DNA of 64,000 bases. It comes from an uncultured Acidimicrobiia bacterium (GTDB taxonomy: Bacteria; Actinomycetota; Acidimicrobiia; Acidimicrobiales; Ilumatobacteraceae). The stretch spans positions 6,156 through 70,155 of the forward strand of contig CAVRCY010000011.1 of the NCBI GenBank assembly GCA_963719775.1, in the 5' to 3' direction. Under the pieces are notes generated by a model. That model worked only from the letters and a program-made list of their open reading frames with translations, had not been told where the DNA came from and ran no database searches. The translations under genes were made by a program, and so were the position numbers. Every line of letters starts with the position of its first letter. Within the stretch, counting starts at the first letter, position 1. Positions 11,035 to 56,072 of the stretch are shown here, one piece after another.

Positions 11035-11057
11035 TACGCCGAATGACGCTAGCGAGC
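11035..11057 (+). promoter_or_regulatory. Box 1 copy 1 (TACGCCGAATGACGCTAGCGAGC)
   Basis: Invariant 13-mer at 11044-11056. GAGAAT at 11074-11079 lies 18 nt after TAGCGA. The SDR ATG is at 11133. Confidence 0.6.
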
Positions 11058-11132
11058 CGCCGAGAGCCGGCAAGAGAATCGGTGCTTCCTGCGAACAGGC
11101 ACTGTCGACGCCAGACATACGGGAGATGCGCA

Positions 11133-11903
11133 ATGAAAGGACTCAGGGACAGGGTTGCGATCGTTGCCGGTGCGGCACCCGGCAACATCGGCGGCGCAAC
11201 AGCGGTCCGTCTCGCGGAGGAGGGCATGGCGGTTGTGGTCGCCGATCTGGACAAGAGTGCAGCTCAGTCCGTGGTCGACGTGATTCGCGGCTTCGGCGGC
11301 AGCGCCGCTTCTCGACCCTTCGACATCACCGACGAGGCGTCGTACGCGGAGCTCGTCGACTTCACGATCAACGAGTTCGGCGGGCCAGACGGCCTGTTCA
11401 ATGTGGCCGCCGATCTCTCAGCCAACACGGTGGGGCGGGACAGCGACGTCATCTCTGTCCCGCTCGACGTATGGCGGCACACCATCGATGTCACGCTCAC
11501 CGGATACATGTACGGAATCAGGCATTCACTTCCCATCATGATCGAGCAGGGCCATGGTGCGATCGTCAACACGATGTCGAGCGTCCTTTGGATGGGTGGA
11601 GCTCAGAGGGTCGCGTACCAAGCTGCCAAGGCGGGGTTGTACGGGCTGACTCGACACACCGCCAGTTTGGGTGGCAAGCGCGGCGTGCGATGCAACTCGG
11701 TCGCCCCAGGGGTGACGCTCACCCGAGCGGCACTCGAGCACCTCACCGAGGGGTACCGCGCCGAGGTCCTCGCGCAGGTGCAGTCGCCTCGACTTGCAGT
11801 CCCGGAGGACATCGCCGGCGTGGTTGCGTTCCTCCTGTCCGACGACAGCGCGTACATCAACGGCCAGACGATTCTCGTCGACGGCGGTCGCAACTTCACC
11901 TGA
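11133..11903 (+). CDS. short-chain dehydrogenase/reductase (SDR)
   Basis: MKGLRDRVAIVAGAAPGNIGGATA..., YQAAKAGL (YxxxK), VNGQTILVDGG; GGGAG precedes ATG 11133. Confidence 0.85.
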   Translation: MKGLRDRVAIVAGAAPGNIGGATAVRLAEEGMAVVVADLDKSAAQSVVDVIRGFGGSAASRPFDITDEASYAELVDFTINEFGGPDGLFNVAADLSANTVGRDSDVISVPLDVWRHTIDVTLTGYMYGIRHSLPIMIEQGHGAIVNTMSSVLWMGGAQRVAYQAAKAGLYGLTRHTASLGGKRGVRCNSVAPGVTLTRAALEHLTEGYRAEVLAQVQSPRLAVPEDIAGVVAFLLSDDSAYINGQTILVDGGRNFT

Positions 11904-12016
11904 GCGCAGTCACGTCAACAGCATCACGCACCAAACGGGCTCTTCGGATCTGAGCGAGCGCGGTGCGTGTAGCTGGGGCGGCCGCGGATGGTCGACGAGG
12001 TCGGTGCTGTGGCTCA

Positions 12017-12580
12017 TCAGCCGTTGAAGGCGACGTCGAGAGCCGAGCGGATCGACGCCGTGACGTCATCGATCGTGCCCGTCGCGTCGATGCGCACGAG
12101 GATGTCGCGTCCGGTGTAGTAGTCGACGAGCGGGAGCGTCTCGCTCGTGTAGACGTCGATCCGGTGGCGGATGGTATCGATGGCGTCGTCGACGCGCGTC
12201 GACGCCTCGCCGCGGGCGATCAACCGGTCGAGCAACTGTTCGTGTGGCACGTCGAGCAGGATGACCGCCTGCAGCGTGACGCCGTGACGAGACGCCACGT
12301 CGTGCGCGGCGATCGCCTGACGGACCGTCCTCGGGTACCCGTCGAGCACGAACCCCCCGGTGGCGTTCGGTCCGAGAACCTCCGCGCGCACGATCCTGAT
12401 CACGATGTCGTCTGCGACGAGGTCACCGCGGCTCATCGCTTCGCTCGCGGCCAGACCGAGCACGGTCCCGTCGCGGACATGCGCGCGAAGGAGTTCGCCG
12501 CTCGAGAGGTGCGGTACGCCGTAGCGCTCCGCCAGTCGTGCCCCTTGCGTCCCTTTCCCCGATCCGGGCGGCCCGAGCAT
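12017..12580 (-). CDS. adk: adenylate kinase paralogue (short-lid type); an in-frame GTG at 12709 would add 43 aa
   Basis: MLGPPGSGKGTQGARLAERYGVPHLSSGELLR...GFVLDGYPRTVRQA...RVDDAIDTIRHRIDVYTSETLPLVDYY. Confidence 0.75.
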   Translation of the reverse strand: MLGPPGSGKGTQGARLAERYGVPHLSSGELLRAHVRDGTVLGLAASEAMSRGDLVADDIVIRIVRAEVLGPNATGGFVLDGYPRTVRQAIAAHDVASRHGVTLQAVILLDVPHEQLLDRLIARGEASTRVDDAIDTIRHRIDVYTSETLPLVDYYTGRDILVRIDATGTIDDVTASIRSALDVAFNG

Positions 12581-12748
12581 CAGCGCTCGCAGTCGATCGA
12601 TGCGCACGTCGTGACCCCGAACCGTCAGGGAACCAACGTTGAACCGACCAGGGTTGAGGACCGTTCGGCGGGCGGCGTCGAAGTCATCGACGACGTCGAC
12701 ACTGGTCACGCCGGCCCTGCACAGCCACCACCATCGCGGCGCGGTCGA

Positions 12749-12774
12749 ACTGCTCGCTAGCGTCAAATGATGTA
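12749..12774 (-). promoter_or_regulatory. Box 1 copy 2 (minus strand: TTACATCATTTGACGCTAGCGAGCAG)
   Basis: 13-mer at 12752-12764 (reverse complement). GATGGT at 12729-12734 (minus) lies 18 nt after TAGCGA. It faces the adk-like gene. Confidence 0.6.
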
Positions 12775-12908
12775 AGTCACGGCGGCCCGCTCTGGCGAGC
12801 GTGTGGCGGACAAGCGGAGACACCGCGAGGCCCACTCCTCGCGGCCCCGGGCCTGCTTCGCGGGACGCGCCGCCGGTCGAAGAAGGAGCGATGGAGTGCC
12901 TCATGGCA

Positions 12909-12931
12909 TACGGCATGTGACGCTAGCGAGC
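12909..12931 (+). promoter_or_regulatory. Box 1 copy 3 (TACGGCATGTGACGCTAGCGAGC)
   Basis: 13-mer at 12918-12930. GAGACT at 12948-12953 lies 18 nt after TAGCGA. The ligase ATG is at 13013. It sits back-to-back with copy 2. Confidence 0.6.
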
Positions 12932-13012
12932 CGACTTTGGTGACGGAGAGACTGGCTGGCATGACAGTTCGAATCGTCACTGCCGGACGAGTCGGGACAC
13001 GTTGACACCTCG

Positions 13013-14596
13013 ATGTCGTTGCTTCGCCGGCTGACCGCTGGGGCGATCCTGGCCGGCACGAATGTCTCGCCGTTTGAGCGTCCGGACCGGCTGCCGAGGG
13101 CGATGATCGCGATGGCGCCGTGGGGGGCGACACCGATGGGTAGCGTCGCCGCTGCGGCGAAGCGGTATCCCACCCGCGTTGCGGTCGTCGACGACGACGG
13201 TGTCACGACGTACGGTGAACTCTGGCGCGACGCCCGGCACGTCGCCGCCGGACTCGCTGCTCGAGGGATCGGCCCCGGCTCCACCGTGGGCTTGCTGTGC
13301 CGCAACCATCTCGGCTTCGTGGAATGGCTCGTCGCCATCTCGGCAACTGGTGCCGACGTCGTTCTCCTGAACACGGGCTTCGCCGGCCCACAGCTCGCGG
13401 ACGTGGTCCGCAGCGAGGGCATCGGCTACCTGATTCACGACGACGAGTTCACCGGCATCGTCGCCACGTGCGATGTCGACACCTTTGACGAACGCCGCAT
13501 GCAGAAGCTCACGCTCACCAACGGGTCAGCGACGCCTCGATGTCGGCAGGGCCGTATGGTCATCCTGACGTCGGGCACGACCGGGCGACCCAAGGGCGCG
13601 GCGCGGCGCAACCACCCTGCGGCGATCGAGGGCGTGGCGGCGCTGCTCGCGCGGATCCCGTACAGACTTGGCGACACGCAGATCATTGCCGCTCCGATGT
13701 TCCACGGTTGGGGGCTCATCAACCTGCTTCTTGGTCTCGGACGATGCGCGACCAACGTGCTCGCACGTCGGTTCGACGCGGCGGCCACCCTGCGTTCGAT
13801 TTCGGAGCACCACGCCGACGTGGTCATCGTCGTGCCGGTGATGCTGTCGCGCCTTCTCGGTCTGGCTCCCGACGTGCTCGTGTCCGCACCCACCCCGAAC
13901 TTGCGGGTGATTGCGTCGAGTGGAGCGGCGCTCGGAAGCAGGCTCTCCACCCAGGTGCTCGATCGCTTCGGCCCGGTGCTGTACAACGTGTACGGATCGA
14001 CTGAAGTAGCGCTGGCGACGATCGCGACCCCACGCGACCTGCGCAACGCTCCGGCGACTGCCGGACGTCGCGGGTTCGGAGTGCACGTCGAGATCCTTGA
14101 TGATCACGGGGAGCGAGTTCCCGACGGCACAGTTGGCCGTGTGTTCGTTGGTGGATCGATGCGCTTCGACGGCTACACGACTGGCGGCAGCAAGGAGATG
14201 CGGCACGGCCTGCTCTCGTCGGGTGATCACGGCTACTTCGAGCAGGGGCTGCTGTTCGTCGAGGGCCGCGAGGACGACATGATCGTCTCGGGCGGTGAGA
14301 ACGTCTTCCCCGGCGAGGTGGAGGAACTGCTCAGCCACCACCCCGCCGTCACCGACGTTTCGGTGGTCGGCGTAGCTGACTCCGAGTTCGGTCAAGCACT
14401 GGCCGCGTTCGTCGTCGTGCGTGACGAGGCGACGATGACCGTCGACGACGTGCGCGCCCACGTGAGAGAGCATCTCGCCCGCCACAAGGTGCCCAGGCGG
14501 GTGGAGTTCCTCGAGGAGATCCCCCGGAACCCGGCCGGCAAGGTCCTGCGCCGCGCCCTCGTCCAATCGGGCGAAGCGGCGTGGGAGGCACAGTGA
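13013..14596 (+). CDS. AMP-dependent acyl-CoA synthetase/ligase
   Basis: ILTSGTTGRPKGA, YGSTE, GDHGYFEQGLLFVEGREDDMIVSGGENVFPGEVE and PRNPAGKVLRR motifs. Confidence 0.9.
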   Translation: MSLLRRLTAGAILAGTNVSPFERPDRLPRAMIAMAPWGATPMGSVAAAAKRYPTRVAVVDDDGVTTYGELWRDARHVAAGLAARGIGPGSTVGLLCRNHLGFVEWLVAISATGADVVLLNTGFAGPQLADVVRSEGIGYLIHDDEFTGIVATCDVDTFDERRMQKLTLTNGSATPRCRQGRMVILTSGTTGRPKGAARRNHPAAIEGVAALLARIPYRLGDTQIIAAPMFHGWGLINLLLGLGRCATNVLARRFDAAATLRSISEHHADVVIVVPVMLSRLLGLAPDVLVSAPTPNLRVIASSGAALGSRLSTQVLDRFGPVLYNVYGSTEVALATIATPRDLRNAPATAGRRGFGVHVEILDDHGERVPDGTVGRVFVGGSMRFDGYTTGGSKEMRHGLLSSGDHGYFEQGLLFVEGREDDMIVSGGENVFPGEVEELLSHHPAVTDVSVVGVADSEFGQALAAFVVVRDEATMTVDDVRAHVREHLARHKVPRRVEFLEEIPRNPAGKVLRRALVQSGEAAWEAQ

Positions 14597-15612
14597 CCTG
14601 TGGCTTCGCCGACCTCGCGGAGTCGCTCTCGCAGACGGAGGTCGGGGCCGGGGCGCTACGGGCCGGCATCCGTTACGAAGCGCTGCTCCGGGACCAGCAC
14701 CGCTGGTACCAGCGCGCGGTGACGATGGCCACTGGCCTCCGAACGGAGCAACAGCGACGAGAACGCCGCGAGCGGTGGCAACGCCACCGGCTGGCGCCCG
14801 AGCGCCGCGTCGGTGGATCCGACGCGCCGGTGGTGTTCTGGCACGGGCCCGACTGCGTGGATGGCCACGATCGACCGCTGGTCGTTCTCGTCAACGGATG
14901 GACCGCGTCGGGTCTGCTGTGGCCCGCCGACCTCGTCAAGCAGCTCGAGGATCGCTGCGATGTCGTCCGGATCGACAACCGCGGCTCCGGCTACTCGCGC
15001 ACCGCGCCGGCCCCGTTCACGATTGCGCAGCTGGCCAATGACGTCGCCGGGGTGCTGCGAGCGATCGGCGCTCGCTCCGCGACCGTCGTCGGCTTGTCGA
15101 TGGGCGGCATGATCGCCCAGGAGACGGCGATGCGCCACCCCGAGCTGGTCGCGCGGTTGGTGCTCTGCGGCACGCGGCCTCCCGCACCGGTCGGGTTCCT
15201 GCCGGCGAGATCCGTCGTGGCGGCGTCGATGTCGCCACCTCGTCCAGATGAGCCGCTCCGTGAGTACTTCGAGCGCTCCTGGAGCGCCGTGGTCGGCCCG
15301 GGCTACACGGCTCGACGGCCCGACTGGATGCGCGAGCTCGTCGATCGGAGCGTCGAGCGCCCGACCCCTCGCGCCGGCGTCATCGCCCAGTTGCGGGCCA
15401 TCACGAGCTGGTCCGGCGCCGGCCGGCTCACCCAGATCGCCGTACCGACCATCGTCCTCCACGGCGCAGAGGACCCGCTCAGCCCGGTCGGCAACGGGAT
15501 GCGACTCGCCCAGCTGATCCCCGACGCCGAGTACGTCGAGCTGCCCGCCGTCGGTCACCTCGTCCCGTTCGAGGCGCCCGAAGCGCTCCTCGCCGCGGTC
15601 TTTTCGACGTGA
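14581..15612 (+). CDS. alpha/beta hydrolase (start uncertain: GTG 14581 or ATG 14725)
   Basis: VLVNGWTASGLLW, GLSMGGMIAQ (GxSxG), HGAEDPLSP, GHLVPFEAP. Confidence 0.75.
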   Translation: MGGTVTCGFADLAESLSQTEVGAGALRAGIRYEALLRDQHRWYQRAVTMATGLRTEQQRRERRERWQRHRLAPERRVGGSDAPVVFWHGPDCVDGHDRPLVVLVNGWTASGLLWPADLVKQLEDRCDVVRIDNRGSGYSRTAPAPFTIAQLANDVAGVLRAIGARSATVVGLSMGGMIAQETAMRHPELVARLVLCGTRPPAPVGFLPARSVVAASMSPPRPDEPLREYFERSWSAVVGPGYTARRPDWMRELVDRSVERPTPRAGVIAQLRAITSWSGAGRLTQIAVPTIVLHGAEDPLSPVGNGMRLAQLIPDAEYVELPAVGHLVPFEAPEALLAAVFST

Positions 15613-15635
15613 GCTCGAGCTGGAGCCTCCCTGGC

Positions 15636-15660
15636 TACGTCATCTGACGCTAGCGAGCGG
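15636..15660 (+). promoter_or_regulatory. Box 1 copy 4 (TACGTCATCTGACGCTAGCGAGCGG)
   Basis: 13-mer at 15645-15657. GAGAAT at 15674-15679 lies 17 nt after TAGCGA. GGAGAG then precedes GTG 15703. Confidence 0.6.
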
Positions 15661-15702
15661 AGATTGCCACCAAGAGAATCTGTTTTCGACTGGAGAGACA
15701 TC

Positions 15703-16092: not shown

Positions 16093-16093
16093 C

Positions 16094-17170
16094 GTGGCGA
16101 CGGTCGAGCGTCCAGCCGCGCTGCTCGAGAGGATGCGGCACGACTTCGAGCGCAGTGCCCTGCGAACACGAAACGGCCTGAAGCATCTCGCCGGGATCGG
16201 GACGCCCGACGTCGGGTGCTCGCCGAAGGATGTGGTGTGGCGGCGCGACAAGGTTCAGCTGAACCGCTACCACAGCGATCGTCGCACCATCGCCCCACCG
16301 ATCCTGCTGGTCATGAGCTTGGTGTCCAAACCGTACGTGCTCGATCTCCGCCCGACCAACAGCTTCGTCGAGGCCCTCACCACGCGTGGCTTCGACGTCT
16401 ACATGCTCGACTGGGGTACCCCGGACGCAGGGGACGCCCACAACACGTTCGAGACCTACTGCGACGAGTACATCCCGTACGCGTGTGCGGTGGCGATGCG
16501 CACGAGCGGCGTCGACGACATCCACGTCTTCGGCTACTGCTTCGGTGGTGTGCTGTCGTTGATCTTCGCCGCCGGTCACCCCGAGATCCCGCTGCGCACT
16601 CTGTCGCTGATGGCAACACCGATCGACTTCGGCGAGGTTGGCGGAACCACGAGGTTGCTTCGAACGGGACGGATCGAAGTCGAGGACTTGCTCGACGAGA
16701 CGGGGAACGTACCTGCTGAGACGGTCCAGCGCGGAATCATGTCCGCTCGGGTCACCGGCTACGCAACACTGTACGCCTCGCTCCTCGAGAACCTCGAGAG
16801 CAGTGACTACATCGCGGCCCATCAAGCCCTGCATGGTTGGGCGTCCGACCACATCCCGTTTCCCGGCGCCTGTTTCCGGCAGACCGCGGAGTGGCTCGTC
16901 CGCGAGAACCGACTGGCGGAGAACCGACTGGTCACCGCACGCGGTGAGCTCGACATCGGCTCGATCTCCTGCCCCGTCATGAATTCCGTGGGCACCGGCG
17001 ACCACCTCGTGCCCATCGAGTCGAACCGGCCCGTGCTCCGCCTCGTCCCCGACGTCGACGACCTCCAGTTCCCCACCGGGCACGTCGGGCTGATCGTCGG
17101 CGGAAAGGCGCACAGCGTGTCGATCCCCGGCATGCTCGACTGGATCGAGCGACGCAGTGATCGTGTGTAG
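16094..17170 (+). CDS. phaC: class III-type poly(3-hydroxyalkanoate) synthase catalytic subunit
   Basis: 358 aa from GTG 16094. Has PILLVMSLVSKPYVLDL, the lipase-box Cys in GYCFGG, later GTGDHLVP and PTGHVGLIV. The size fits class III/IV PhaC. Confidence 0.8.
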   Translation: MATVERPAALLERMRHDFERSALRTRNGLKHLAGIGTPDVGCSPKDVVWRRDKVQLNRYHSDRRTIAPPILLVMSLVSKPYVLDLRPTNSFVEALTTRGFDVYMLDWGTPDAGDAHNTFETYCDEYIPYACAVAMRTSGVDDIHVFGYCFGGVLSLIFAAGHPEIPLRTLSLMATPIDFGEVGGTTRLLRTGRIEVEDLLDETGNVPAETVQRGIMSARVTGYATLYASLLENLESSDYIAAHQALHGWASDHIPFPGACFRQTAEWLVRENRLAENRLVTARGELDIGSISCPVMNSVGTGDHLVPIESNRPVLRLVPDVDDLQFPTGHVGLIVGGKAHSVSIPGMLDWIERRSDRV

Positions 17171-17172
17171 CG

Positions 17173-17712
17173 ATGCCCTCTGAGCTGCTGATCTCAGAGC
17201 TGGCCGGCGCGGACGTCGACGGTGTCTGGGCCTTCTTGCAGCATGTCCCGGAACGCGACCGAACCTTTGTGAAGGAACCGGTCATCGGGCGCGAGACCAT
17301 CCGCGGCTGGGCTGATGGCGACCGAGCGACCCGGTGCGTCGCGCTGCTCGACGAGCGCGTCGTCGGGTACGTTGCCCTGTTCCCCGGCGTGGGTTGGTCG
17401 CGGCATGTCGGCGAGCTGCGACTCGTCGTCGACCCCGCGTTCCGAGGACAAGGGATCGGCCAGCGGCTGGTCCGTCACGCGCTCACCGTCGCCGTCAACA
17501 CTGGACTCACCAAGGTTGTCGTCGAAGTGGTCGCCGAGCAGGAGTCGACGATCGCCGTCTTCAAACGGCTCGGCTTCCGAGTTGAGGCCCTCCTCGAGAA
17601 CCACGTTCAAGACCAAGACGGACGCTTCGGCGACCTCATCGTCCTCGCCAACCACATCGACGTCGACTGGCAGCTCCTCGCCACCGTCGGCCTCGACGAG
17701 CCGCTCGATTGA
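17173..17712 (+). CDS. GNAT-family N-acetyltransferase
   Basis: LVVDPAFRGQGIGQRLV...AVFKRLGF acetyl-CoA binding pattern. Confidence 0.8.
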   Translation: MPSELLISELAGADVDGVWAFLQHVPERDRTFVKEPVIGRETIRGWADGDRATRCVALLDERVVGYVALFPGVGWSRHVGELRLVVDPAFRGQGIGQRLVRHALTVAVNTGLTKVVVEVVAEQESTIAVFKRLGFRVEALLENHVQDQDGRFGDLIVLANHIDVDWQLLATVGLDEPLD

Positions 17713-19206: not shown

Positions 19207-19232
19207 TTACATCATTTGACGCTAGCGAGCAG
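19207..19232 (+). promoter_or_regulatory. Box 1 copy 5 (TTACATCATTTGACGCTAGCGAGCAG)
   Basis: 13-mer at 19217-19229. GAAGGT at 19246-19251 lies 17 nt after TAGCGA. The YceI ATG is at 19314. Confidence 0.6.
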
Positions 19233-19313
19233 TCAGAGCGCGAGCGAAGGTGGGGACGTGAGGCGCCTCGACATCTCGATCGCCATCGACCAAGCACTCG
19301 TCAGGAGGGTGCC

Positions 19314-19874
19314 ATGAGTGCTACTTCCGAGCAAACGATTCCTGGCTACGTCGCCGGTAGCTGGACGATCGACCCGGTGCATTCTGAGATCGGGTTCTCG
19401 GTCCGCCACCTCATGGTGTCCAAGGTGCGCGGCAAGTTCACCAGCTTCAGCGGTGACATCGTCACTGGCGAGTCGCCGGCCGATTCGAGCGTGACCGCGA
19501 CGATCGATCTCAGCTCGATCGACACCGGCAACCCCGACCGGGACAACCACATCCGATCCGCCGACTTCTTCGAGGTCGACCAGCACAAGACGATGAGCTT
19601 TCGGTCGACCAGCGTTCGCCGCGATGGCGAGGACTACATCCTCGACGGCGAACTCACGCTGAAAACGATCACCAAGCCGATCTCGCTGCGTCTTCAACTG
19701 GGGGGCTTCGGCCAGGATCCGTGGGGAGGGACCCGTGCCGGATTCGAGGCGATCGGTCAGCTCAAGCGCAGCGATTTCGGGGTCGACTTCAACATGGTGC
19801 TCGAGGCCGGCGGCGTCGTGATTGGTGACAAGATCGACATCACGCTCGAGATCGAAGCGGTACTGAACGCGTGA
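19314..19874 (+). CDS. YceI-family (polyisoprenoid/lipid-binding) protein
   Basis: WTIDPVHSEIGFSVRHLMVSKVRGKFTSFSG...IDTGNPDRDNHIRSADFF. AGGAGG precedes the ATG. Confidence 0.85.
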   Translation: MSATSEQTIPGYVAGSWTIDPVHSEIGFSVRHLMVSKVRGKFTSFSGDIVTGESPADSSVTATIDLSSIDTGNPDRDNHIRSADFFEVDQHKTMSFRSTSVRRDGEDYILDGELTLKTITKPISLRLQLGGFGQDPWGGTRAGFEAIGQLKRSDFGVDFNMVLEAGGVVIGDKIDITLEIEAVLNA

Positions 19875-33168: not shown

Positions 33169-33304
33169 GAACAACCCCCTACGTGATCCCTGAGCCGTCT
33201 TGGTTGCGGCTCGAGGCTGAAGACCATGACGTGTCACGGCACCCTGACATCGACCCATGGTTCTGACGCCCCGGGTGAGCCGTCGTCACCTCATTCGAAT
33301 GATT
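32611..33304. repeat. near-identical block, copy 1 (SBP 5' third plus upstream leader)
   Basis: Matches 34322-35016 at an offset of 1711-1712 nt with only a few substitutions and one 1-nt indel. The rest of the two SBP genes is only about 80 percent identical at protein level. Confidence 0.9.
33242..33304 (-). promoter_or_regulatory. Box 2 copy C
   Basis: Minus strand reads AATCATTCGAATGAGGTGACGACGGCTCACCC-N10-AACCAT-GGG-TCGATGTCAGGG, about 75-135 nt upstream of ATG 33168. Confidence 0.55.
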
Positions 33305-34879: not shown

Positions 34880-35016
34880 GAACAACCCCCTACGTGATCC
34901 CTGAGCCGTCTTGGTTGCGGCTCGAGGCTGAAGACCATGACGTGGTCACGGCACCCTGACATCGACCCATGGTTCTGACGCCCCGGGTGAGCCGTCGTCA
35001 CCTCATTCGAATGAAT
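34322..35016. repeat. near-identical block, copy 2
   Basis: See 32611-33304. Confidence 0.9.
34954..35016 (-). promoter_or_regulatory. Box 2 copy D
   Basis: Same sequence as copy C apart from the outermost upstream bases. It starts 4 nt after the stop of the 68-aa ORF. Confidence 0.55.
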
Positions 35017-39485: not shown

Positions 39486-39566
39486 CCGGTCGCCCGCGTG
39501 GATCCTTTCGCGTCGGATTTGCGGCGCCAGCCACGTCCCCAAAGCACCAACGACTGGAGTTCTGAT

Positions 39567-46252: not shown

Positions 46253-49039
46253 GTGGTGATGCTTGCAGATCGTTCGTCGGACCAGAACGGTGACGGTTTG
46301 GTCGGGCGGGCCGAAGAACTCGAGCTGATCACATCGTTCCTCGAGCGGGCGGTGATCGCCGGCGGTGTGTTGCTCGTCGCGGGGGAACCCGGCATCGGCA
46401 AGACTGCGTTGCTGAACAGCGCAGCCGAGGATGCGAGGGGGTCCGGCTCTCGCGTGTTGCGGGTGGAGGGGGTGGAGTTCGAAGCGAGTTTGGCGTTCTC
46501 CGGTCTGAACCAGTTGTTGATGCCGCTCGTCGGTGAGTTCGATGAGCTCGCCGAGTTGCATCGCGATGCGTTGACGTCGGCGCTTGGGCTGGGCAATGGC
46601 TCGACGCCTGACCGGTTGGTGGTGTCAACCGCCGCGCTGGCGTTGCTGCGGCAGACGGCGGAGTCGCGTCCCCTTCTGCTTGTTGCGGATGACGTGCACT
46701 GGCTTGATCGCTCCAGTGGTCAGGTGTTGAGTTTCGTGGCTCGCCGCCTCGCCGGTAGCCGGGTGGGGTTGTTGGTGGCGGCTCGCGCGGGGATCGGGAG
46801 CTTCTTCGATGGTGGAGGCCTTCCGATCCTCGAGTTGGGACCGTTGGATGAAATGGCGGCGAGCGTGTTGTTGCAGTCACGATTTCCGATGCTTGCGCCG
46901 CGGGCGCGTGCTCGTGTGTTGGATGACTCGCAAGGAAACCCACTCGCGCTGTTGGAGTTGCCGGGTGCGCTGGGCGGGCGGCAAGGAATTGCCCGTCTGA
47001 CGGTGCCAGCGGTGCTGCCCCTCACCAAGCGCCTTCAGGCCTTGTTCGCGTCTCGCGTCGGGGAGCAATCGGCGGCCACGCGGAGGTTGTTGCTACTTGC
47101 AGTGCTGGACGGCACGGGCGAGCTCGACGTGCTGCGATCCGCTTCCGGGGATCTCCATCTCGAAGGGCTTGTCGCTGCGCACCGAGCCGGACTCATAGAG
47201 GTCGAGGAAGGTAGCTGTCGGATCGTGTTCCGGCACCCGCTCACCCGCTCTGGCGTGGTGGCACTCTCGACGCCGGATGAGCGACGGTCGGCGCACCTGA
47301 CGCTGGCTGACGCGCTTCTCGAGCAGCCGGAACGTCGGGCCTGGCACCTCGCCGAGGCGACCGGCGAGCCCGACGAGGAGGTCGCCGGTTTGATCGAGAC
47401 GGTGGCCCAGCGGATCCTGCGACGTGGTGATCGGGTCGGTGCGGTTGCCGCCCTCATACGGGCGGCTGAGCTGAGCCCGCGTCCGGCCGACCGCGGCCGT
47501 CGACTGACCCGGGCCGCCAATGTCGGACGGGTGAACGGCGACCTACGCGATGTGTCGCGGCTGCTCGAGGAGGCGCAGCGGGCCGACCCGCAGTGCAGCG
47601 AGTCGCTCGAGGCCGCCGTGGCCGCGTCGCATGTTCTCCTCACCGACCAGGGTGACGTCGACACTGCCCACCGCCTTCTGGTCGGGGCAATCAAGCTGCG
47701 AACCGACCGCTCGGACACCGTCGACAGTGTGCTTGCCGACGCGCTCCAGATGCTCCTCTATCTGTGCTGGTTCGGGGGACGTGATGAGTTGTGGAAGCCG
47801 CTCGAGGATGCGATCTCCCGCCTCGAGCCCAACATTCCCGAGGTGCTCCGCCTGTGCAGCGCGTTCTATGCGGATCCGGCGCGGGTCTCGCTGCCGGCGC
47901 TCGCTCGGCTCGACGTGGCTATCGGCGCCCTGCACGAGTTGGTCGACCCGGCGGATGTCGCGAGGATCGTCGACGCGGCGATCTTCGTCGACCGGCTGGG
48001 CGGCTGCCGGGAGACCCTCTGGCGAGTCCTGAAAGACGGTCGTGCGGGTATCGGCAACATTTCGCTACACACCGCGCTGATCGCCCTCGCGATCGACGAC
48101 TACATGATCGGTCAATGGGAGGAAGCCGACGAACTGCTCGACGAACTGCTGCAACTGTTTCAGGACCTCGGCTATCACATGGTGTGGCCGGTCCATCACG
48201 TCAAGGCCCTCCTCGCGGCGGCCCGCGGTGACGTCGAGGCGACGTGGACGTTGACCCAAGAGATGTCGCGATGGGCCGAGCCGCGAGGGATGCACGCGGT
48301 CCGCTGGTACTGCTGTCACGCCCGAACACTCGCCGCGCTGGCCCAGGGTGATTTCGAGTACGCATACCTGCAGGCCGCTGCCATCAGCCCGCCCGGCACG
48401 TTCGCGCCGCACGTCCCGCACGCAGTCTGGGTTGCCATGGATCTCGTCGAGGCAGCGGTACACACCAACCGCCATGCCGAAGCGGCGGCGCACGCGAACG
48501 CCATGCGCGAGCAAGGGATCGCCGCGTTGTCCCCGCGACTGGCACTGCTAGCAGGCGCATCTGCCGCTCTCACCGCTGCCGATGATCAGACCGCCCAGTC
48601 GTTCGAGGAAGCGTTGGCCCTCCCCGGGATCGACCGTTGGCCGTTCGACCGGGCGCGAGTGCAACTCGCCTACGGCGCCCGTCTCCGACGGACCGGCGCC
48701 AGGATCGAAGCACGCAAATACCTGTCGGCGGCGCTCGACACCTTCCAGTGGCTCGGGGCACGCCCATGGGCGGCGCGAACCGCTGATGAGCTGCGTGCGA
48801 CGGGCAGGACCAGTAACCGCGGTAGGGCTTGGCACCCCGCTCAGCTCACCCCGCAGCAACACCAGATCGCGATGCTTGCCGCGGCCGGCATGACCAACAA
48901 GGAGATCGGCGAGCGGCTGGCTCTCTCCCACCGCACCGTCGCCACACATCTCCACCGCATTTTCCCGAAACTCGGCATCGCCACCCGCTCGGCACTGCGC
49001 GACGCGCTCGGACCCGGCCGCAGTACCGGCATCGATTGA
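46253..49039 (+). CDS. large ATP-binding LuxR-family regulator (LAL), intact, 928 aa
   Basis: GEPGIGKTALL P-loop, helical repeats, and C-terminal LTPQQHQIAMLAAAGMTNKEIGERLALSHRTVATHLHRIFPKLG. Confidence 0.85.
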   Translation: MVMLADRSSDQNGDGLVGRAEELELITSFLERAVIAGGVLLVAGEPGIGKTALLNSAAEDARGSGSRVLRVEGVEFEASLAFSGLNQLLMPLVGEFDELAELHRDALTSALGLGNGSTPDRLVVSTAALALLRQTAESRPLLLVADDVHWLDRSSGQVLSFVARRLAGSRVGLLVAARAGIGSFFDGGGLPILELGPLDEMAASVLLQSRFPMLAPRARARVLDDSQGNPLALLELPGALGGRQGIARLTVPAVLPLTKRLQALFASRVGEQSAATRRLLLLAVLDGTGELDVLRSASGDLHLEGLVAAHRAGLIEVEEGSCRIVFRHPLTRSGVVALSTPDERRSAHLTLADALLEQPERRAWHLAEATGEPDEEVAGLIETVAQRILRRGDRVGAVAALIRAAELSPRPADRGRRLTRAANVGRVNGDLRDVSRLLEEAQRADPQCSESLEAAVAASHVLLTDQGDVDTAHRLLVGAIKLRTDRSDTVDSVLADALQMLLYLCWFGGRDELWKPLEDAISRLEPNIPEVLRLCSAFYADPARVSLPALARLDVAIGALHELVDPADVARIVDAAIFVDRLGGCRETLWRVLKDGRAGIGNISLHTALIALAIDDYMIGQWEEADELLDELLQLFQDLGYHMVWPVHHVKALLAAARGDVEATWTLTQEMSRWAEPRGMHAVRWYCCHARTLAALAQGDFEYAYLQAAAISPPGTFAPHVPHAVWVAMDLVEAAVHTNRHAEAAAHANAMREQGIAALSPRLALLAGASAALTAADDQTAQSFEEALALPGIDRWPFDRARVQLAYGARLRRTGARIEARKYLSAALDTFQWLGARPWAARTADELRATGRTSNRGRAWHPAQLTPQQHQIAMLAAAGMTNKEIGERLALSHRTVATHLHRIFPKLGIATRSALRDALGPGRSTGID

Positions 49040-49092: not shown

Positions 49093-49118
49093 TTACGTCA
49101 TTTGACGCTAGCGAGAGC
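49093..49118 (+). promoter_or_regulatory. Box 1 copy 6 (TTACGTCATTTGACGCTAGCGAGAGC)
   Basis: 13-mer at 49103-49115. CACGCT at 49134-49139 lies 19 nt after TAGCGA. The hydrolase ATG 49220 follows GGAAAGGAG. Confidence 0.55.
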
Positions 49119-49219
49119 ACCTACCGAGACACTCACGCTAGAGGAACTCCCATGACAGACGATCCGAACGATCTGGGCCGCGGGGTGATCAGGACACTCG
49201 TCCCGGAAAGGAGTGCCCG

Positions 49220-50068
49220 ATGTCTTCACCAGTGAAATCTGCCATCCGGACACAGTTCCGCACGATCGACGGGCTGCAGATCCGCTGCGCCGAGAGCGAG
49301 CAGCGCGACGACCATGCGCTCTTGTTGAGCCCGTGGCCGGAGAGCCTCTTCGCCTTCGACCAGATCTGGGAGCGGCTCGCCAAGCACACGCATCTGGTCG
49401 CCGTCGACCTGCCGGGGTTCGGACACTCCGAGCGGCGGGATTCGCTTCTCGCGCCGCGGGCGATGGGTGAGTTCGTCATCCAGGTGGCGGACGAGTTCGG
49501 GCTCGACAACCCACACACAGTCGGCCCTGACGTCGGGACGAGTGCGTTGCTGTTCGCCGCGGCCGACAACCCGGACCGCCTCCGCAGCATCGTGGTCGGC
49601 AGCGGCGGCGCGTCGTTCCCCCTGGAGCTGGGCGGCATGCTCAACGACTGGGTCGTCGCGCCCAACCTCGACGCCCTGCGCGGCGTCGACTCCCGGGTGA
49701 TCGTCTCGGGTGCGCTCAGTGGTCTCCAGCGCTACGAGCTCCCCGAGTCGGTGCGCGAGGATTATCTCTCCGCCTACGACGGCGACCGGTTCGTCGTGGC
49801 CGCGAACTACGTCCGCGCCTACCCGACCGAGCTCCCGGTCCTCGGCGAGCTGCTCTCTCAGATCGAGACGCCGGTCCAGATCATCGGCGGGATGTGGGAC
49901 TGGGCGGTGCCGCCGAGCAACCACCGTTACCTCCACCAACGGCTGCCCAACAGCAAGCTCGACCTCATCGACGCCGCGCATTTCACGTGGGAGGACGCGC
50001 CAGACACGTACGCCGAACTCGTCACGAGCTGGTGGGCGGACGGCTACGCCAACACCGGCACGCGATAA
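49220..50068 (+). CDS. alpha/beta hydrolase (paralogue of 54269..55120)
   Basis: LLLSPWPESLFAF, VAVDLPGFGHSE, HTVGPDVGTSALL, AAHFTWEDAP. Confidence 0.8.
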   Translation: MSSPVKSAIRTQFRTIDGLQIRCAESEQRDDHALLLSPWPESLFAFDQIWERLAKHTHLVAVDLPGFGHSERRDSLLAPRAMGEFVIQVADEFGLDNPHTVGPDVGTSALLFAAADNPDRLRSIVVGSGGASFPLELGGMLNDWVVAPNLDALRGVDSRVIVSGALSGLQRYELPESVREDYLSAYDGDRFVVAANYVRAYPTELPVLGELLSQIETPVQIIGGMWDWAVPPSNHRYLHQRLPNSKLDLIDAAHFTWEDAPDTYAELVTSWWADGYANTGTR

Positions 50069-50221: not shown

Positions 50222-50509
50222 TCACCGTCTGGGCAACGCGGGCTCGGCCGGCATCGCCCTAGCGAGAGCGTCCGGAAGGGCGACGAGTCCGGCTTCCACC
50301 TGCGCCATGATGTAGTCGATCTGGAGGGCGTAGCTTCCGCCCCGCTGAACCGCGATGTCGGTGACGACCTGGCGCTCGGGCCGCGTGTAGTCCGGGGCCC
50401 ACTCGGCCGTGACCGCCAGCCAGCTGACGGGCCGAGCACCTGCCTGAATCATGCGAGCCTTCGCGTCCTCGTGCGCCTCGACCGCCAACCCACCCGAGGA
50501 GTCACTCAA
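50222..50509 (-). pseudogene. C-terminal fragment of a YcaC-like isochorismatase-family hydrolase
   Basis: ...HEDAKARMIQAGARPVSWLAVTAEWAPDYTRPE... matches only the last roughly 90 aa of such roughly 200-aa proteins. The open frame starts 5 nt after the degenerate Box 1 copy. Confidence 0.45.
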
Positions 50510-50513: not shown

Positions 50514-50540
50514 TTTCTCTAGCGTCATTCGACGTCATCG
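50514..50540 (-). promoter_or_regulatory. Box 1 copy 8, degenerate (minus strand: GACGTCGAATGACGCTAGAGAAAG)
   Basis: 11 of 13 core positions match. Its left arm resembles copy 1 (CGAATGACGCTAG). Confidence 0.4.
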
Positions 50541-50931
50541 GGTGCTGAGATCCCACCGCCCCCGTCCGTCGTTGACGCCGCACCAAGTGACAGCCATGAG
50601 CTGCCGCACCACCGGACGTCCATGCGAAGGGGCCGAGAATCCGATGCGCGAAGACGGTCAGCCCCAACGTGTGGGCGGCCACGAGGATCTGCCCACAGGC
50701 GGCCAACAGCGGGTGCCCACTGGCGGCCCACGAGCATCGCCAACGATCCCTCCCCGAGATGGGTGGGCCGAGGAGCGATCCGTGTAACGGCACTTCGATG
50801 ATGCCCTGGATGGCCGCCTGATGCGACCCTCGTGGCGCGCGTTTCCGGACTGTGAGTGTGGCGACGGCCGTCGTGGGACGTTCCGGCCTGCATCACGGAG
50901 GAGGAGGATTCGGTCGTGCCGGCGGGCGTCG

Positions 50932-51748
50932 TCAGCGGGTGAAGTAGCCCGACTGCAAATCGGCGAGCAAGGTGGTGAGCGGCGCCTTGGACACGATGAA
51001 GCCGCCGCGAAACGGCGCGCTCGAAATCGAGCGCGACCGTTAGCGCCAGCACCACCACGACGACGAGACCGGCGGGTAGCAGCAACATCGACCGAGTACG
51101 TCTGCTCGTCACGAACACCGCGTTCGCCACCAACGCGGCGCTGGTGATGACCAGGATCGCCAGATAGAGGTCCTCCAGCCCGCGCTCGGCGATGGCGATG
51201 CGGGTACGCCGTAGGCGGCTGAGGTCGTTGACGCCGGCGAGGAGTTCCGAGGCGCCGGCGGACTCGAGCCCCGGATCCTCCGCTCGGGCACGCACCGCCC
51301 GCTGCAGGTCGGCCAGCCGGGCTCGGGCTTCGGGGCTGCCGGACTGGCCGCGGCCGAGAGCGCGCCATCCGTCCGTGGTCGTGGCCGCGATGTAAGCCGC
51401 AAGAGGGTGCTGCACGACTGTCGGGTCGGTACCGCTCGTGATCGATGCCCAGGCGAGGCGGGCGCCGGTGGCGGCCTCGTCGACCACCGTCTCGGTGGCC
51501 GCTCGGAAATCAGCCACCTCGTTGGCAATGGTGAGCGCCAGCAGCACCCCGAAGGCCGCTCCCAAGCCGGACATCATGGCCGACGCCACCGGCTGAAGGT
51601 CCTCCGCGGCAAACCTTCTCGCCACGACCGCGGCAGCGACCACCACCAACGCGAAGAATCCAGCAAAGATCAGCGCGACGAGGATCGGGTGAAGCCCGAC
51701 GAGCCAGGTTGCCACGGAACGCAAGGTTTGCACGCCGCGGAACGCCAT
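50932..51748 (-). pseudogene. DUF4239-like membrane protein; frame break near 51015-51020
   Basis: MAFRGVQTLRSVATWLVGLHPILVALIF..., two N-terminal and two C-terminal TM stretches. After ...ALDFER the alternative frame gives PFRGGFIVSKAPLTTLLADLQSGYFTR ending at TGA 50932-50934. Confidence 0.6.
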
Positions 51749-52001
51749 CGGGCCCACCTCCACGTCGTGTTGGAAGCTGCACATGTGGAAACGGCGCGCC
51801 GGGGAAGCATCGCTGGGCCATCAGGACCGCCGCCGCCACAGTGCCCTCGAACGCCCAAGAGCGGGCGGCGAGCTTCACCGATGGAAGTGCCGGTAAGCGC
51901 GGTCATGACGTGAGCGGAGTCCTCGTCCGACGTTGCTGCGGCTGCAGCTCGTGAAGCGCTTGTTCGGTTCGGCCACCCAGATCGCCGCCACGCAGGTCTC
52001 C

Positions 52002-52674: not shown

Positions 52675-52851
52675 GCTCACGTCGAGAACGTACACCGGCG
52701 GCCTATCGGACGAGCGATGAGGTGGCGCGTGCGGTCCTCGGAGATCACTCGTGCGGTGAGGAGGGTTCCCGCCGACGGGTTCCTCCGGGGGCGACAGACT
52801 CGCTTCCGATGATCGCGAGATGGATCTGCTGTTCATCCGTGGGCGGGCGTC

Positions 52852-54188: not shown

Positions 54189-54221
54189 GCTGCCGAACGC
54201 CGCCGGACGACGTTCGGCAGC
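54189..54221 (-). terminator. 11-bp perfect stem GCTGCCGAACG / CGTTCGGCAGC with an 11-nt loop
   Basis: Lies about 50 nt downstream (minus direction) of the hydrolase stop at 54269. Confidence 0.5.
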
Positions 54222-54268
54222 CGGCGCACGTCGACCGCCGACTGACGAGCAGTTCTGGCGCGGCCCAG

Positions 54269-55120
54269 CTAGCCCGCTACGACGCGTCGATAGCCGCCTC
54301 TGATCCAGTTGTCGATCAAGCGGCCGTACTCGTCGGCTGCTTCTTCCCATGCGAAGTGACCGGCGTCGAGAGGATGGATTTCGCTGTAAGGGAGGAGGTC
54401 GTCGAGGTACTCGTTGTTCGACCACGGCACGAGGTCGTCGTGGCGTCCCGCCACGATTTGGGTCGGCGTCGTCATCGATGGCAGGAGATCGCGCAGCACC
54501 GGGTTCTGCTCGGGGTAGTGCCGCACGAACCGCGCCGACTCTGCGAAGCGCCCGAGGTCGTAGGCGCTGACGTAGTCCTCATGGACCTCGGGCTCGGTAG
54601 CGCTCGGAGCAGCAGACTCGACCGCGTAGCCAATATTCGTTCGGGCGTCGAGCGAGCGCACCACGTCCAGACTCGGCGCTTCGATGATGTCCTTGAGCGC
54701 GCCGCCCGCTTCGATCGGGAAGCGAACCGCGCCGCCGCCGATCGTCAAGCTCGTGACGCGTTCCGGAGCCTTCGCCGCGAGGAAGAGCGCCGCGGCCGTG
54801 CCGACGTCCGGGCCGACCAGGTGTGGTGCGCCGAGGTCCCATTCATCGATCATGCGGGCCAGGAACGCTCCGGAGCTGTCCGGGGCGATCAGCTCCGGGC
54901 GACCATCGGAGTGACCAAATCCAGGCAGGTCGACGGCGACGACGCGCCCGACTGCCGCGACTCGGTCCCAGATACGTCGGAAGGCCCAAAGGCTCTCGGG
55001 CCACGGTGCCAGCAGCAGCACCGTGATGTCCGAATCTGCTTGGTTGTCTGCGTACCTGATCCGCACCCCGTCGCAGACTCGGAAGTACGTGCTGATCTTC
55101 GTCACCGCCGCGGCAGCCAT
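54269..55120 (-). CDS. alpha/beta hydrolase (paralogue of 49220..50068)
   Basis: LLLAPWPESLWAF, VAVDLPGFGHSD, HLVGPDVGTAAAL, AGHFAWEEAA. Confidence 0.8.
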   Translation of the reverse strand: MAAAAVTKISTYFRVCDGVRIRYADNQADSDITVLLLAPWPESLWAFRRIWDRVAAVGRVVAVDLPGFGHSDGRPELIAPDSSGAFLARMIDEWDLGAPHLVGPDVGTAAALFLAAKAPERVTSLTIGGGAVRFPIEAGGALKDIIEAPSLDVVRSLDARTNIGYAVESAAPSATEPEVHEDYVSAYDLGRFAESARFVRHYPEQNPVLRDLLPSMTTPTQIVAGRHDDLVPWSNNEYLDDLLPYSEIHPLDAGHFAWEEAADEYGRLIDNWIRGGYRRVVAG

Positions 55121-55235
55121 CTGACATGTCTCCTTCGTCGATTCTGTACGGCTCCGTCCACAACGCAGGTCACGATGTTCGACTGGAGCGATCGGTCTAG
55201 AGTTCTAGAGCATTCGGTCTACTAATGTCAAGAGA

Positions 55236-55838
55236 GTGGCGCGCGATCGTGACTCCCGCGCGGAACTCGTGCAGACGATGGCGCGGCTTCTCCGAGCGCA
55301 GGGCTACACGGCGACGGGCCGTGCGCAACTGTTGGCAGAGAGTGGTGTCTCCAACGGATCGCTGTATCACCACTTCCCAGGCGGCATGGAAGCGCTAGCC
55401 GAAGCTGCCCTTGATGCGTCCGGCGCGTTCGTCGCCGAAGCGCTCCGCGAAGCACTGCACGCTGCTCCGAGCGCTGGAGAAGGCATCGTGCGATTCCTCG
55501 ACGTCGTCGGAGGGCAGACGCGCGAGGAACAGTGCGCCGGTTGTCCGATCGCGCCGACCGCGCTCGAATCGCCCATCATCAGCCCGCACCTACGGGCCGC
55601 TGCAGCGCGGTGTTTTGACGAACAGGAGGGCCTGATTGCTTCGCGGCTACGCGCCGACGGCTGGCCCGACCACTCTGCTCAAGAGGCGGCATCGGCGACG
55701 CTCGCCCTGATCGAAGGCTCACTGCTGCTCGCTCGCGTGAGCGGGCAACCGAGTCACCTCGCTCACGCCAAACGCGCTGCGCTCGCGCTACTCGCCGCGC
55801 CACCCATGGACCGAGACACTCGAACGCAGACGTTCTGA
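55236..55838 (+). CDS. TetR-family transcriptional regulator
   Basis: LVQTMARLLRAQGYTATGRAQLLAESGVSNGSLYHHFPGG. Divergent from the hydrolase gene. Confidence 0.8.
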   Translation: MARDRDSRAELVQTMARLLRAQGYTATGRAQLLAESGVSNGSLYHHFPGGMEALAEAALDASGAFVAEALREALHAAPSAGEGIVRFLDVVGGQTREEQCAGCPIAPTALESPIISPHLRAAAARCFDEQEGLIASRLRADGWPDHSAQEAASATLALIEGSLLLARVSGQPSHLAHAKRAALALLAAPPMDRDTRTQTF

Positions 55839-55936
55839 CCCGCGCCGCACAGAAGACGCAGGTACCACTCACGGCAGGCATCCTCGAACGCCGTTCAACG
55901 GGTAACGGTTGCGATGTCGACGCTCGATCGGCGGCG

Positions 55937-56044
55937 TCACAACGTCACGACGATCTTGCCGTGCACGTGGAGACCGGCCTGAAGTGAGACGGCCTCACGA
56001 ATCTGTTCGACCGGGAACGTCGCGGCGATTGGCACCGTGATCCG
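55937..56044 (-). pseudogene. C-terminal roughly 35-aa remnant of a zinc-type/quinone oxidoreductase (MDR family)
   Basis: GRITVPIAATFPVEQIREAVSLQAGLHVHGKIVVTL plus stop is the characteristic MDR C-terminus. Homology ends within a few nt of Box 1 copy 7. Confidence 0.5.
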
Positions 56045-56046
56045 AC

Positions 56047-56072
56047 CTACGCCATTTGACGCTAGCGAGCAG
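56047..56072 (+). promoter_or_regulatory. Box 1 copy 7 (CTACGCCATTTGACGCTAGCGAGCAG)
   Basis: 13-mer at 56057-56069. CAGTGT at 56086-56091 lies 17 nt after TAGCGA. Confidence 0.55.

Follow-up and report, generated by a model that had tools for sequence, protein, structure and literature searches.

The window analysed here, a 64 kb stretch of DNA from an uncultured actinobacterium (G+C 66-70%, coding fraction ~89%), contains a short conserved DNA element, hereafter the box, in front of several groups of genes, and a gene for a large ATP-binding regulator of the LuxR family (LAL), hereafter LAL2. The genes downstream of the boxes encode a short-chain dehydrogenase/reductase (SDR), an adenylate kinase paralogue, an acyl-CoA ligase with a hydrolase, a PhaE-like protein with PhaC, a GNAT protein and a thiolase-like protein, a YceI protein, an alpha/beta hydrolase, and an SDR with a thiolase. 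These identities had been proposed in an earlier annotation made from the sequence alone (the original prediction) and were confirmed by Pfam. The nearest named relatives of PhaC and YceI belong to metagenome-assembled genomes of Acidimicrobiia, Acidimicrobiales and Acidimicrobiaceae, and judged by these relatives the organism is probably a member of the Acidimicrobiia. Statements on the distribution of the box in this genome refer to the 64 kb of the window.

The invariant part of the box is the 13-mer TGACGCTAGCGAG. A recount agreed with the original prediction that it occurs seven times without mismatch and that all seven copies are intergenic and oriented like the next gene (Table 1). Six of the coordinates given at that time were correct and that of the second copy was shifted by one position (12752-12764 for 12753-12765); the distance to the start codon, given as about 45-130 nt, measured 45-145 nt from the end of the box. 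When up to two mismatches were allowed, 11 matches to the 13-mer were found versus 2.75 expected, a number that none of 100 dinucleotide-preserving shuffles reached. The conserved element reaches 9 nt upstream of the 13-mer and comprises 22 nt, TACrySAtnTGACGCTAGCGAG, with 7/7 copies carrying the 22-mer TAC(G/A)(T/C/G)C(A/G)(T/A)n-TGACGCTAGCGAG; in an alignment of the flanks, similarity stops at this 22-mer and a downstream hexamer described below. A position weight matrix (PWM) of the 22 nt, derived from 20 independent sites of the window and other genomes, scored exactly eight places in the window at 24-41 bits and everything else below 12 bits, and gave no such site in 10 shuffles. Because of this gap the sites are a class of their own rather than the upper end of a continuous distribution.

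A degenerate copy on the minus strand, with 11 of 13 positions matching at 50515-50527, was present as described. Its proposed role as the promoter of an eighth transcription unit was not upheld, since it is a decayed box that abuts a pseudogene and has no hexamer at the proper distance. The TGA of this copy is also the stop codon of a bestrophin-like gene (50525-51784). The adjacent pseudogene (50222-50509) retains 78 C-terminal residues of an isochorismatase-family protein, which are 46% identical to the isochorismatase behind a box in Actinomadura. The site is read as a relic, a decayed box beside a deleted target. Behind box 7, YceI is cut off after ~54 residues; the box itself is intact and probably now serves the SDR and thiolase genes.

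The second conserved element is a hexamer of the form nAnnnT. As described originally it follows all seven copies, at 16-18 nt after the box, and this fixed distance holds for 19 of 19 independent sites from 11 sequence sources, other genomes included (background 0.07, binomial P ~1e-22). The offset has a sharp peak, with 16 nt in 11 sites, 17 in 7 and 18 in 2 (the site at 15645 has one match at 16 nt and another at 18 nt), and other offsets are almost empty. GAnnnT was found in 14 of the 19 sites, GAGAAT being the commonest form. In one of the other genomes (L019), the ATG of a multicopper oxidase with a twin-arginine translocation signal follows GAGACT after 7 nt, as in a leaderless mRNA, and this fits a putative -10 function of the hexamer; in another (L028) the distance from GAGAAT to the ATG is 11 nt. 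With the hexamer placed at -12 to -7, as leaderless L019 implies, the 13-mer spans -41 to -29, and the dyad within the box is centred at -42.5, -43.5 or -44.5 for spacers of 16, 17 or 18 bp, and at one of the first two values in 18/19 sites. The -35 slot reads AGCGAG, leaving these promoters with no usable -35 and a weak core, and a search for sigma-70-consensus promoters gave no match anywhere in 10.9-19.4 kb. TTGACG inside the box was considered as a -35 hexamer and rejected, being 24-26 bp from the hexamer and having no -10-like hexamer 17 bp after it. Provided that the hexamer is the -10 element, the arrangement would be that of class II promoters, with a regulator site at -35 in fixed phase to -10. 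The boxes behave as promoter elements of one regulon, in agreement with the original proposal of a promoter geometry in which a box replaces or overlaps the -35 region. Short open reading frames (ORFs) begin downstream of two hexamers, one of 14 codons (MTVRIVTAGRVGTR) at 12961-13005 (+), 7 nt after that of box 3, and one of 26 codons at 49152-49232 (+), 12 nt after that of box 6. They could be leaderless upstream ORFs preceding the acyl-CoA ligase and alpha/beta hydrolase genes.

Two overlapping palindromes had been described for the box. The first, of the type CGTCA-TT-TGACG, is exact in only 2/7 window copies (boxes 4 and 6). The second, CGCTAGCG, was rejected as a functional element, since it is broken in Streptosporangiales, which read CGCTAGTG instead. 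Between the two actinobacterial classes in which boxes were found, the CGTCA-N2-TGACG dyad is kept, with C replaced by T at position 10 of the 13-mer. Across both classes the dyad takes the form (T/A)(A/C)CGTCA-NN-TGACGCT, two heptamers 2 bp apart (7-2-7) that are symmetric at 5-6 of 7 positions. A search of AGCGAG for one more heptamer, which would have produced a direct-repeat logic, gave nothing convincing.

A search of related genomes, as recommended with the original prediction, recovered the same box and hexamer elsewhere. The pattern used, TACNNCNNN followed by the 13-mer, was a strict one of 22 nt and was applied to 185,579 species genomes and to the JGI metagenomes. This pattern is too narrow, skipping the distal halves TTG, TAA, TAG and ACC and the T variant of the Streptosporangiales, and the phyletic distribution of the box is therefore underestimated. 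Real-looking sites in high-GC DNA were obtained from L003, L004 (Acidimicrobiales), L007, L010/L015 and L019, all with GAGAAT, GAGACT or GAGGCT 16-17 nt downstream; the remaining hits were chance matches in low-GC DNA. The boxed gene in L003, L004 and L007 is a YceI orthologue with zf-UBP and DUF5996 genes behind it; thiolase and acyl-CoA ligase genes lie divergently on the other side of the box. Other boxed genes encode an SDR (L010), a multicopper oxidase (L019), luciferase-like proteins (L022, L028), an F420-type oxidoreductase (L027) and isochorismatases (L030, L031). The acyl-CoA, PHA (polyhydroxyalkanoate) and lipid theme that had been suggested for the regulon is specific to the genome of the window, as elsewhere YceI, isochorismatase, luciferase-like proteins, F420-type oxidoreductases, SDRs and alpha/beta hydrolases recur.

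Several of these loci show further sequence features. A heptamer-like block, T(T/C)ACGT(C/G)C, stands directly before the 22-mer in the YceI promoters of L003, L004, L007 and L027 that are divergent from thiolase and acyl-CoA ligase, and in L045 a AGCGTCATATGACCGA dyad is found in addition, 50 nt upstream of the box; both may be auxiliary sites for an oligomeric regulator. In L028 a repeat, TGACGCGACCGA(G/C)TGGACCAGTCTGGGTCCGTCTCC, with the dyad GGACC-N6-GGTCC, occurs at 89-125 and 1277-1313 before a zf-UBP gene and a hexapeptide-repeat gene; it probably serves as operator for a different regulator, one that acts on genes neighbouring the LAL regulon.

The comparison also revealed which regulator accompanies the box. 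L022 carries two exact boxes, one before YceI and another whose TGA doubles as the stop codon of a large gene with a GerE domain. The product of this gene is 70% identical to LAL2 over 772 residues and has the same recognition helix. LAL2 orthologues share 57-72% identity and the helix SHRTVxxHLHR(I/L)(F/Y)PKLG, and a box lies beside the orthologue in 8/8 genomes, i.e. at every retrievable locus, the window included, in two actinobacterial classes. In the window this is box 6, which has the best PWM score of all and starts 54 nt after the LAL2 stop codon; the LAL-box-hydrolase module formed there is conserved in L045. The original prediction had considered the regulator not identifiable from the sequence and had listed the LAL gene ending 54 nt before this copy among several candidates. 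Comparative genomics now points to this gene as the best candidate. In L022 the NTPase part of the LAL orthologue is in another frame (11826-12333, with the change near 12180), and the called product of 798 amino acids (aa) is without the Walker A region, which reflects either a sequencing error or an inactivated regulator.

Relatives of the target genes do not always have a box. The locus of the nearest PhaC relative (L005, 79% identity) has none, and the LAL gene neighbouring it is not an orthologue, which shows that the PHA genes are no ancestral members of the regulon. The YceI loci L020/L021 and L023-L026 likewise have no box and show instead a divergent MarR gene with GTTGATnnATCAAC-type palindromes, which means that the same target is wired to a different regulator in those lineages. 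From the boxless relatives of both PhaC and YceI it follows that the box is tied to a regulatory system that some lineages have and not to the target gene. The MarR-YceI intergenic regions at L020 9804-10000 and L023 9829-10000 contain 2-3 palindromes of the type GTTGAT(G/A)(C/T)(A/G)TCA(A/C)C.

LAL2 has the defining features of a LAL that a sequence can reveal, a P-loop NTPase, a C-terminal GerE helix-turn-helix (HTH) and a size above ~800 aa. Its AAA_16 domain scored 73 bits in Pfam (cutoff 32.6), with the Walker A and B motifs (GEPGIGKT and LLLVADDVHWLD) seen in the alignment, and its GerE domain 46.7 bits (cutoff 23.5) at residues 864-915 of 928. The match to TPR_MalT (22.9 bits) was below the cutoff of 45, and the MalT model matched in the HTH only, at 21 bits against a cutoff of 537. 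LAL2 falls in no NCBIfam equivalog, and its relatives in the PDB are GerE-type DNA-binding domains only, the DNA-binding domain of DosR being among the few matches. A second LAL-type gene at 35468-38138 (-) is present as overlapping ORFs in different frames (AAA_16/NB-ARC at 36171-38138, TPR_MalT and GerE at 35468-36538). Its HTH (LSVSTNTVKTHMRHIYTKLD) is MalT-like, unlike that of LAL2, and the split makes it either a frameshifted pseudogene or the product of an assembly error.

Table 1. Boxes, downstream genes and candidate regulator in the window, followed by boxes beside LAL2 orthologues and paralogues in other genomes. Positions are those of the window unless given relative to a LAL stop codon.
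Feature	Position	Strand	Box and promoter elements	Downstream genes or domains
Box 1	11035..11079	+	22-mer 11035-11056 TACGCCGAATGACGCTAGCGAG; 13-mer 11044-11056; 17-nt spacer; GAGAAT 11074-11079	SDR gene, ATG 11133, end 11903 (Pfam)
Box 2	12730..12774	-	22-mer 12753-12774 TACATCATTTGACGCTAGCGAG; 13-mer 12753-12765; 17-nt spacer; GATGGT 12730-12735	Adenylate kinase paralogue, probable GTG start 12607, end 12017 (ADK domain)
Box 3	12909..12953	+	22-mer 12909-12930; 13-mer 12918-12930; 17-nt spacer; GAGACT 12948-12953; divergent from box 2	Acyl-CoA ligase 13013-14596; alpha/beta hydrolase 14581-15612 (Pfam)
Box 4	15636..15679	+	22-mer 15636-15657, exact CGTCA-TC-TGACG; 13-mer 15645-15657; 16-nt spacer; GAGAAT 15674-15679	PhaE-like (GTG 15703); PhaC ~16094-17170 (matches P0001); GNAT 17173-17712; thiolase-like 17709-19184
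Box 5	19208..19251	+	22-mer 19208-19229; 13-mer 19217-19229; 16-nt spacer; GAAGGT 19246-19251	YceI 19314-19874; orthologous YceI boxed in L003, L004, L007, L022, L027
LAL2	46253..49039	+		928 aa; AAA_16 NTPase, TPR-like middle, C-terminal GerE/LuxR HTH; recognition helix LSHRTVATHLHRIFPKLG
Box 6	49094..49139	+	22-mer 49094-49115, exact CGTCA-TT-TGACG; 13-mer 49103-49115; 18-nt spacer; CACGCT 49134-49139	Alpha/beta hydrolase 49220-50068
Degenerate box	50515..50536	-	GACGTCGAATGACGCTAGAGAA; 11/13 in core; no hexamer at proper distance	
Box 7	56048..56091	+	22-mer 56048-56069; 13-mer 56057-56069; 16-nt spacer; CAGTGT 56086-56091	Truncated YceI remnant (ATG 56184); SDR 56465-57553; thiolase 57522-58889
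L027	13-mer starts 123 nt after LAL stop		Second box before YceI-like gene	
L028	Overlaps LAL stop codon			
L045	86 nt after LAL stop			Alpha/beta hydrolase 61% identical to window 49220-50068
Microtetraspora malaysiensis L029	206 nt after LAL stop		Variant TGACGCTAGTGAG	
Actinomadura oligospora L031/L032	33 nt after LAL stop		TGACGCTAGTGAG	Isochorismatase, FAA hydrolase, glyoxalase genes
Nonomuraea insulae L030			TGACGCTAGTGAA	Isochorismatase-inhibitor-LAL operon
Streptomyces L034 (paralogue)			CAAGTCATTTGACCTATGTCGGG	SRPBCC gene
Streptomyces L039 (paralogue)			CTCAGTCATTTGACGTATGCCGGG	SRPBCC gene
Rhodococcus L036 (paralogue)			CAGTCAGCTGACGGAGGCTGT	
Rhodococcus L037 (paralogue)			CAGTCAACTGACGGAGGCTGC	
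Streptomyces L040 (paralogue)			CAGTCAGCTGACGGACGCTGG	

More distant LALs appear to have boxes of their own. A tblastn search of plasmids with LAL2 returned 27 paralogues (39-50% identity) with HLY(R/Q/H) helices, and in 5/12 of the paralogue loci inspected, from Streptomyces and Rhodococcus plasmids, the LAL stop codon is followed, at a distance of 38-70 nt, by an exact GTCA-N2-TGAC core. The background frequency of this core over all fetched DNA is 0.046 per kb, true sites included. These boxes are followed by nAnnnT 15-17 nt after the position equivalent to the 13-mer (15 in L039, 16-17 in the other four). Within a LAL subfamily the 8-9 bp that follow TGAC(G/C) are conserved, and between subfamilies they differ, even inside Streptomyces (L034/L039 vs L040). 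Since the block in the -35 slot differs by LAL subfamily within one genus, it is probably specified by the regulator and not by the sigma factor of the host. This argues for binding of the LAL to the box as the most economical explanation. A megablast search of the 11-20 kb region against plasmids gave zero matches. As a separate observation, the LAL-adjacent promoters of a Rhodococcus qingshengii plasmid (L036, 5780-5850) and a Streptomyces albogriseolus plasmid (L040, 5295-5360) are nearly identical and have ATGTCAGTCAGCTGACGGA(G/C)GCTG…GGTGGCCGAGTCATTCT in common, which suggests horizontal transfer of a LAL-plus-target module between orders.

We consider it likely, with a probability of roughly two thirds, that the boxes are the upstream halves of class II promoters that are bound and activated by LAL2. 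The imperfect dyad nACGTCA-N2-TGACGCT would be the site of a LAL2 GerE dimer, or of the DNA-proximal pair of an oligomer, and the AGCGAG remainder of the box would fill the position of the -35 hexamer, with a putative weak -10 (nAnnnT, mostly GAGAAT) 16-18 bp beyond the box. Transcription is predicted to start 7 nt after the hexamer, which would put the dyad centre at about -42.5 to -44.5. If LAL2 works like MalT and other STAND/LAL proteins, a ligand together with ATP would switch it to an oligomeric DNA-binding form, and this oligomer would recruit RNA polymerase to promoters that have no usable -35. The boxed genes of the window, from the first SDR gene to the SDR and thiolase genes behind box 7, would then make up the regulon in this genome. 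Of the two kinds of regulator that the original prediction had left open, one alternative sigma factor or a class II-type activator, it is the activator that fits.

The behaviour of MalT, LuxR and NarL and the class II site geometry of LuxR, FNR and CRP are established knowledge, and the box shares individual traits with several of these systems. Like LAL2, MalT of E. coli is a large regulator with an N-terminal NTPase, a helical/TPR sensor and a C-terminal LuxR/GerE HTH, and its promoters have no functional -35, regulator boxes that reach into the -35 region and several dispersed units under one regulator. MalT boxes, however, are asymmetric decamers, GGGGA(T/G)GAGG, arranged as direct or mixed repeats at -37.5/-38.5 with additional distal sites, whereas the box is a GTCA-N2-TGAC dyad near -42.5 with an invariant extension of 8-9 bp. 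The class II promoters of LuxR/TraR resemble the box promoters in the dyad for a GerE-type HTH dimer at ~-42.5 (lux box at -42.5), abutting or overlapping the -35, and in the weak core promoter. The lux box is 20 bp long, symmetric and bound by a small protein that binds acyl-homoserine lactones, in contrast to the asymmetric site and the 928-aa STAND ATPase described here. NarL sites share the 7-2-7 layout of inverted heptamers with a 2-bp spacer, the GerE-family HTH, and a distal heptamer starting with TAC as in TACYYMT. The heptamer here is (T/A)(A/C)CGTCA and not TACYYMT, and NarL is a phosphorylated response regulator with variable site positions, whereas the position of the box relative to the -10 is fixed. 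DosR/DevR of mycobacteria is a further GerE-family HTH protein acting on a palindromic site before stress and lipid-storage genes; it is the response regulator of a two-component system and its consensus, TTSGGGACTWWAGTCCCSAA, is unrelated to the box. An actinobacterial case is TpdR of Rhodococcus jostii TMP1, a LAL activator that adjoins its target operon and needs repeats overlapping the -35 of the target promoter PTTMP, with box B at -51 to -37 and boxes C/D at -45 to -28 (PMC6099782). For TpdR a 15-nt direct repeat, TnnAAnnGCGGAnTC, at one operon was proposed (PMC6099782), unlike the dyad with extension found here at no fewer than seven units and conserved across two actinobacterial classes. 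LAL-dependent class II promoters are known as such, and the sequence of the box matches none of the MalT, LuxR or TpdR systems. A literature search with the 13-mer, its reverse complement, sub-strings and GTCAnnTGAC variants returned only unrelated primers and eukaryotic sequences, and the motif was in no paper found.

Several observations weigh against activation of the box promoters by LAL2. The proximal 13 nt are invariant in the window and the distal half of the dyad is degenerate, an asymmetry that a simple dimer site would not normally show and that points to a second reader of the DNA, such as sigma region 4, a third HTH or another protein. No box was found upstream of LAL2 itself in the window. 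The box loci of L003, L004, L010 and L019 are too short to show whether a LAL is present, and where the two are adjacent, this is guilt by association: the position of the box could equally mean that the LAL just neighbours a member of the regulon. Finally, the G at position 1 of the hexamer in 14/19 sites is atypical of housekeeping promoters.

This G would be accounted for if box and hexamer were the -35 and -10 of a dedicated alternative sigma factor, of the extracytoplasmic function (ECF) type or group 3, with the LAL merely a frequent neighbour; such a factor would also explain the fixed spacing of two conserved elements, the invariant block in the -35 slot and the lack of any sigma-70-like promoter. 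We regard it as unlikely, since the upstream element is 22 bp long with a dyad core, far beyond what one sigma region 4 covers, and since the hexamer keeps only A2 and T6, the positions typical of a housekeeping -10. The -10 motifs of ECF sigma factors are of the CGTC or GTT types, and the hexamer is unlike them. Furthermore, no sigma or anti-sigma gene was found among the ORFs scanned in the window or the called genes of L004, L022, L027-L032 and L045 (L003, L007, L010, L015 and L019 were not fully scanned), the only Sigma70_r4 matches being the HTHs of the LALs, and the 8-9 bp in the -35 slot track the LAL subfamily within Streptomyces and not the RNA polymerase of the host.

Activation by LAL2 must also be set against repression. 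An operator of a repressor, either LAL2 or another HTH protein, might cover the -35 region, as the site indeed overlaps the -35 position. Repressed promoters normally keep good core elements, whereas here no -35-like hexamer exists at 16-18 bp and the -10 is weak (GAGAAT, GATGGT, CAGTGT). The strict helical phase (16-18 bp in 19/19) would be needed for contact with polymerase and not for simple occlusion. At least one LAL-type protein, SCO6993, is reported as a negative regulator (PMC9628970), whereas characterised LALs such as MalT and TpdR are activators (for TpdR see PMC6099782). Taken together, these points make a repressor improbable.

We give still less credence to the idea that LAL2 is unrelated to the box and that the dyad is bound by some other regulator, namely the products of the TetR gene (55236-55838) or the AraC gene (8689-9651) or a protein encoded elsewhere. 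A TetR gene does adjoin a box both in the window and in L022, and TetR had been among the original candidates; these TetRs, with 24% identity over 37 aa, are no orthologues of each other. An AraC/NmrA pair lies near the LAL in the window and in Microtetraspora (L029), yet most box loci (L027, L028, L045, L004) have neither a TetR nor an AraC gene, the LAL is the sole regulator common to 8/8 orthologue loci, and paralogous LALs have related boxes of their own. The AraC gene (Cupin_6 and HTH_18) and the NmrA-like gene are divergent in both places (window 8689-10545, L029 4428-6288). A dispersed repeat (of the repetitive extragenic palindrome or miniature inverted-repeat transposon kind) or a structured RNA element, to which the unusually high invariance across copies and the short palindromes inside the box might point, is very improbable, given that similarity ends at the 22-mer and hexamer, that all copies are intergenic and co-oriented, that the 2-nt spacer of the dyad is too short for a hairpin loop, that an Rfam scan of the window gave no match, and that the position of the box before orthologous genes is kept in distant genomes.

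With activation by LAL2 as the preferred reading, the finding is not a new kind of regulatory system. LALs are numerous in actinobacteria (14 in S. coelicolor) and have been called poorly studied (PMC3282765). Operators are known for only a handful of them, and the box provides a testable operator/promoter architecture for one widespread subfamily. The near-invariance of 13 bp while the proteins diverged by 30-40% is unusual for the site of a transcription factor and suggests composite recognition. The regulon would bring a PHA synthase, acyl-CoA ligases, thiolases, a second adenylate kinase and YceI under the control of one predicted signal-dependent switch, a lead on the coordination of carbon or lipid storage and stress genes in a class for which hardly any genetics exists. 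A likely by-product is the operator architecture of a very large family of orphan regulators, as LAL2 has >7,600 homologues at E<1e-50. Tentatively, and at somewhat less than even odds, we propose a family-wide rule by which LALs of Actinomycetota of ~920 aa with AAA_16-TPR-GerE organisation are typically encoded just upstream of a target promoter consisting of a GTCA-N2-TGAC dyad at ~-42.5, a subfamily-specific block of 8-9 bp in the -35 slot, a spacer of 16-17 bp and nAnnnT. Reading ~22 bp in an asymmetric manner, the LAL oligomer would in effect take over the recognition of the -35 from sigma. Sequence alone would then suffice, if this is true, to predict operators and first targets for thousands of orphan LALs, among them those of antibiotic producers.

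Two further observations concern other parts of the window. Tandem paralogues at 31651-33258 (-) and 33362-34885 (-), 87% identical over ~506 aa and with a lipoprotein-type signal (…LLSCAIVVAAACGDDDD), are without a Pfam or NCBIfam match and lie upstream of a branched-chain-type ABC permease and ATPase; they may represent a new family of substrate-binding lipoproteins. A molybdopterin oxidoreductase at 39498-41913 (+) is present as two overlapping ORFs, 39498-40697 and 40387-41913, and reflects either a frameshift, an assembly error or a pseudogene.

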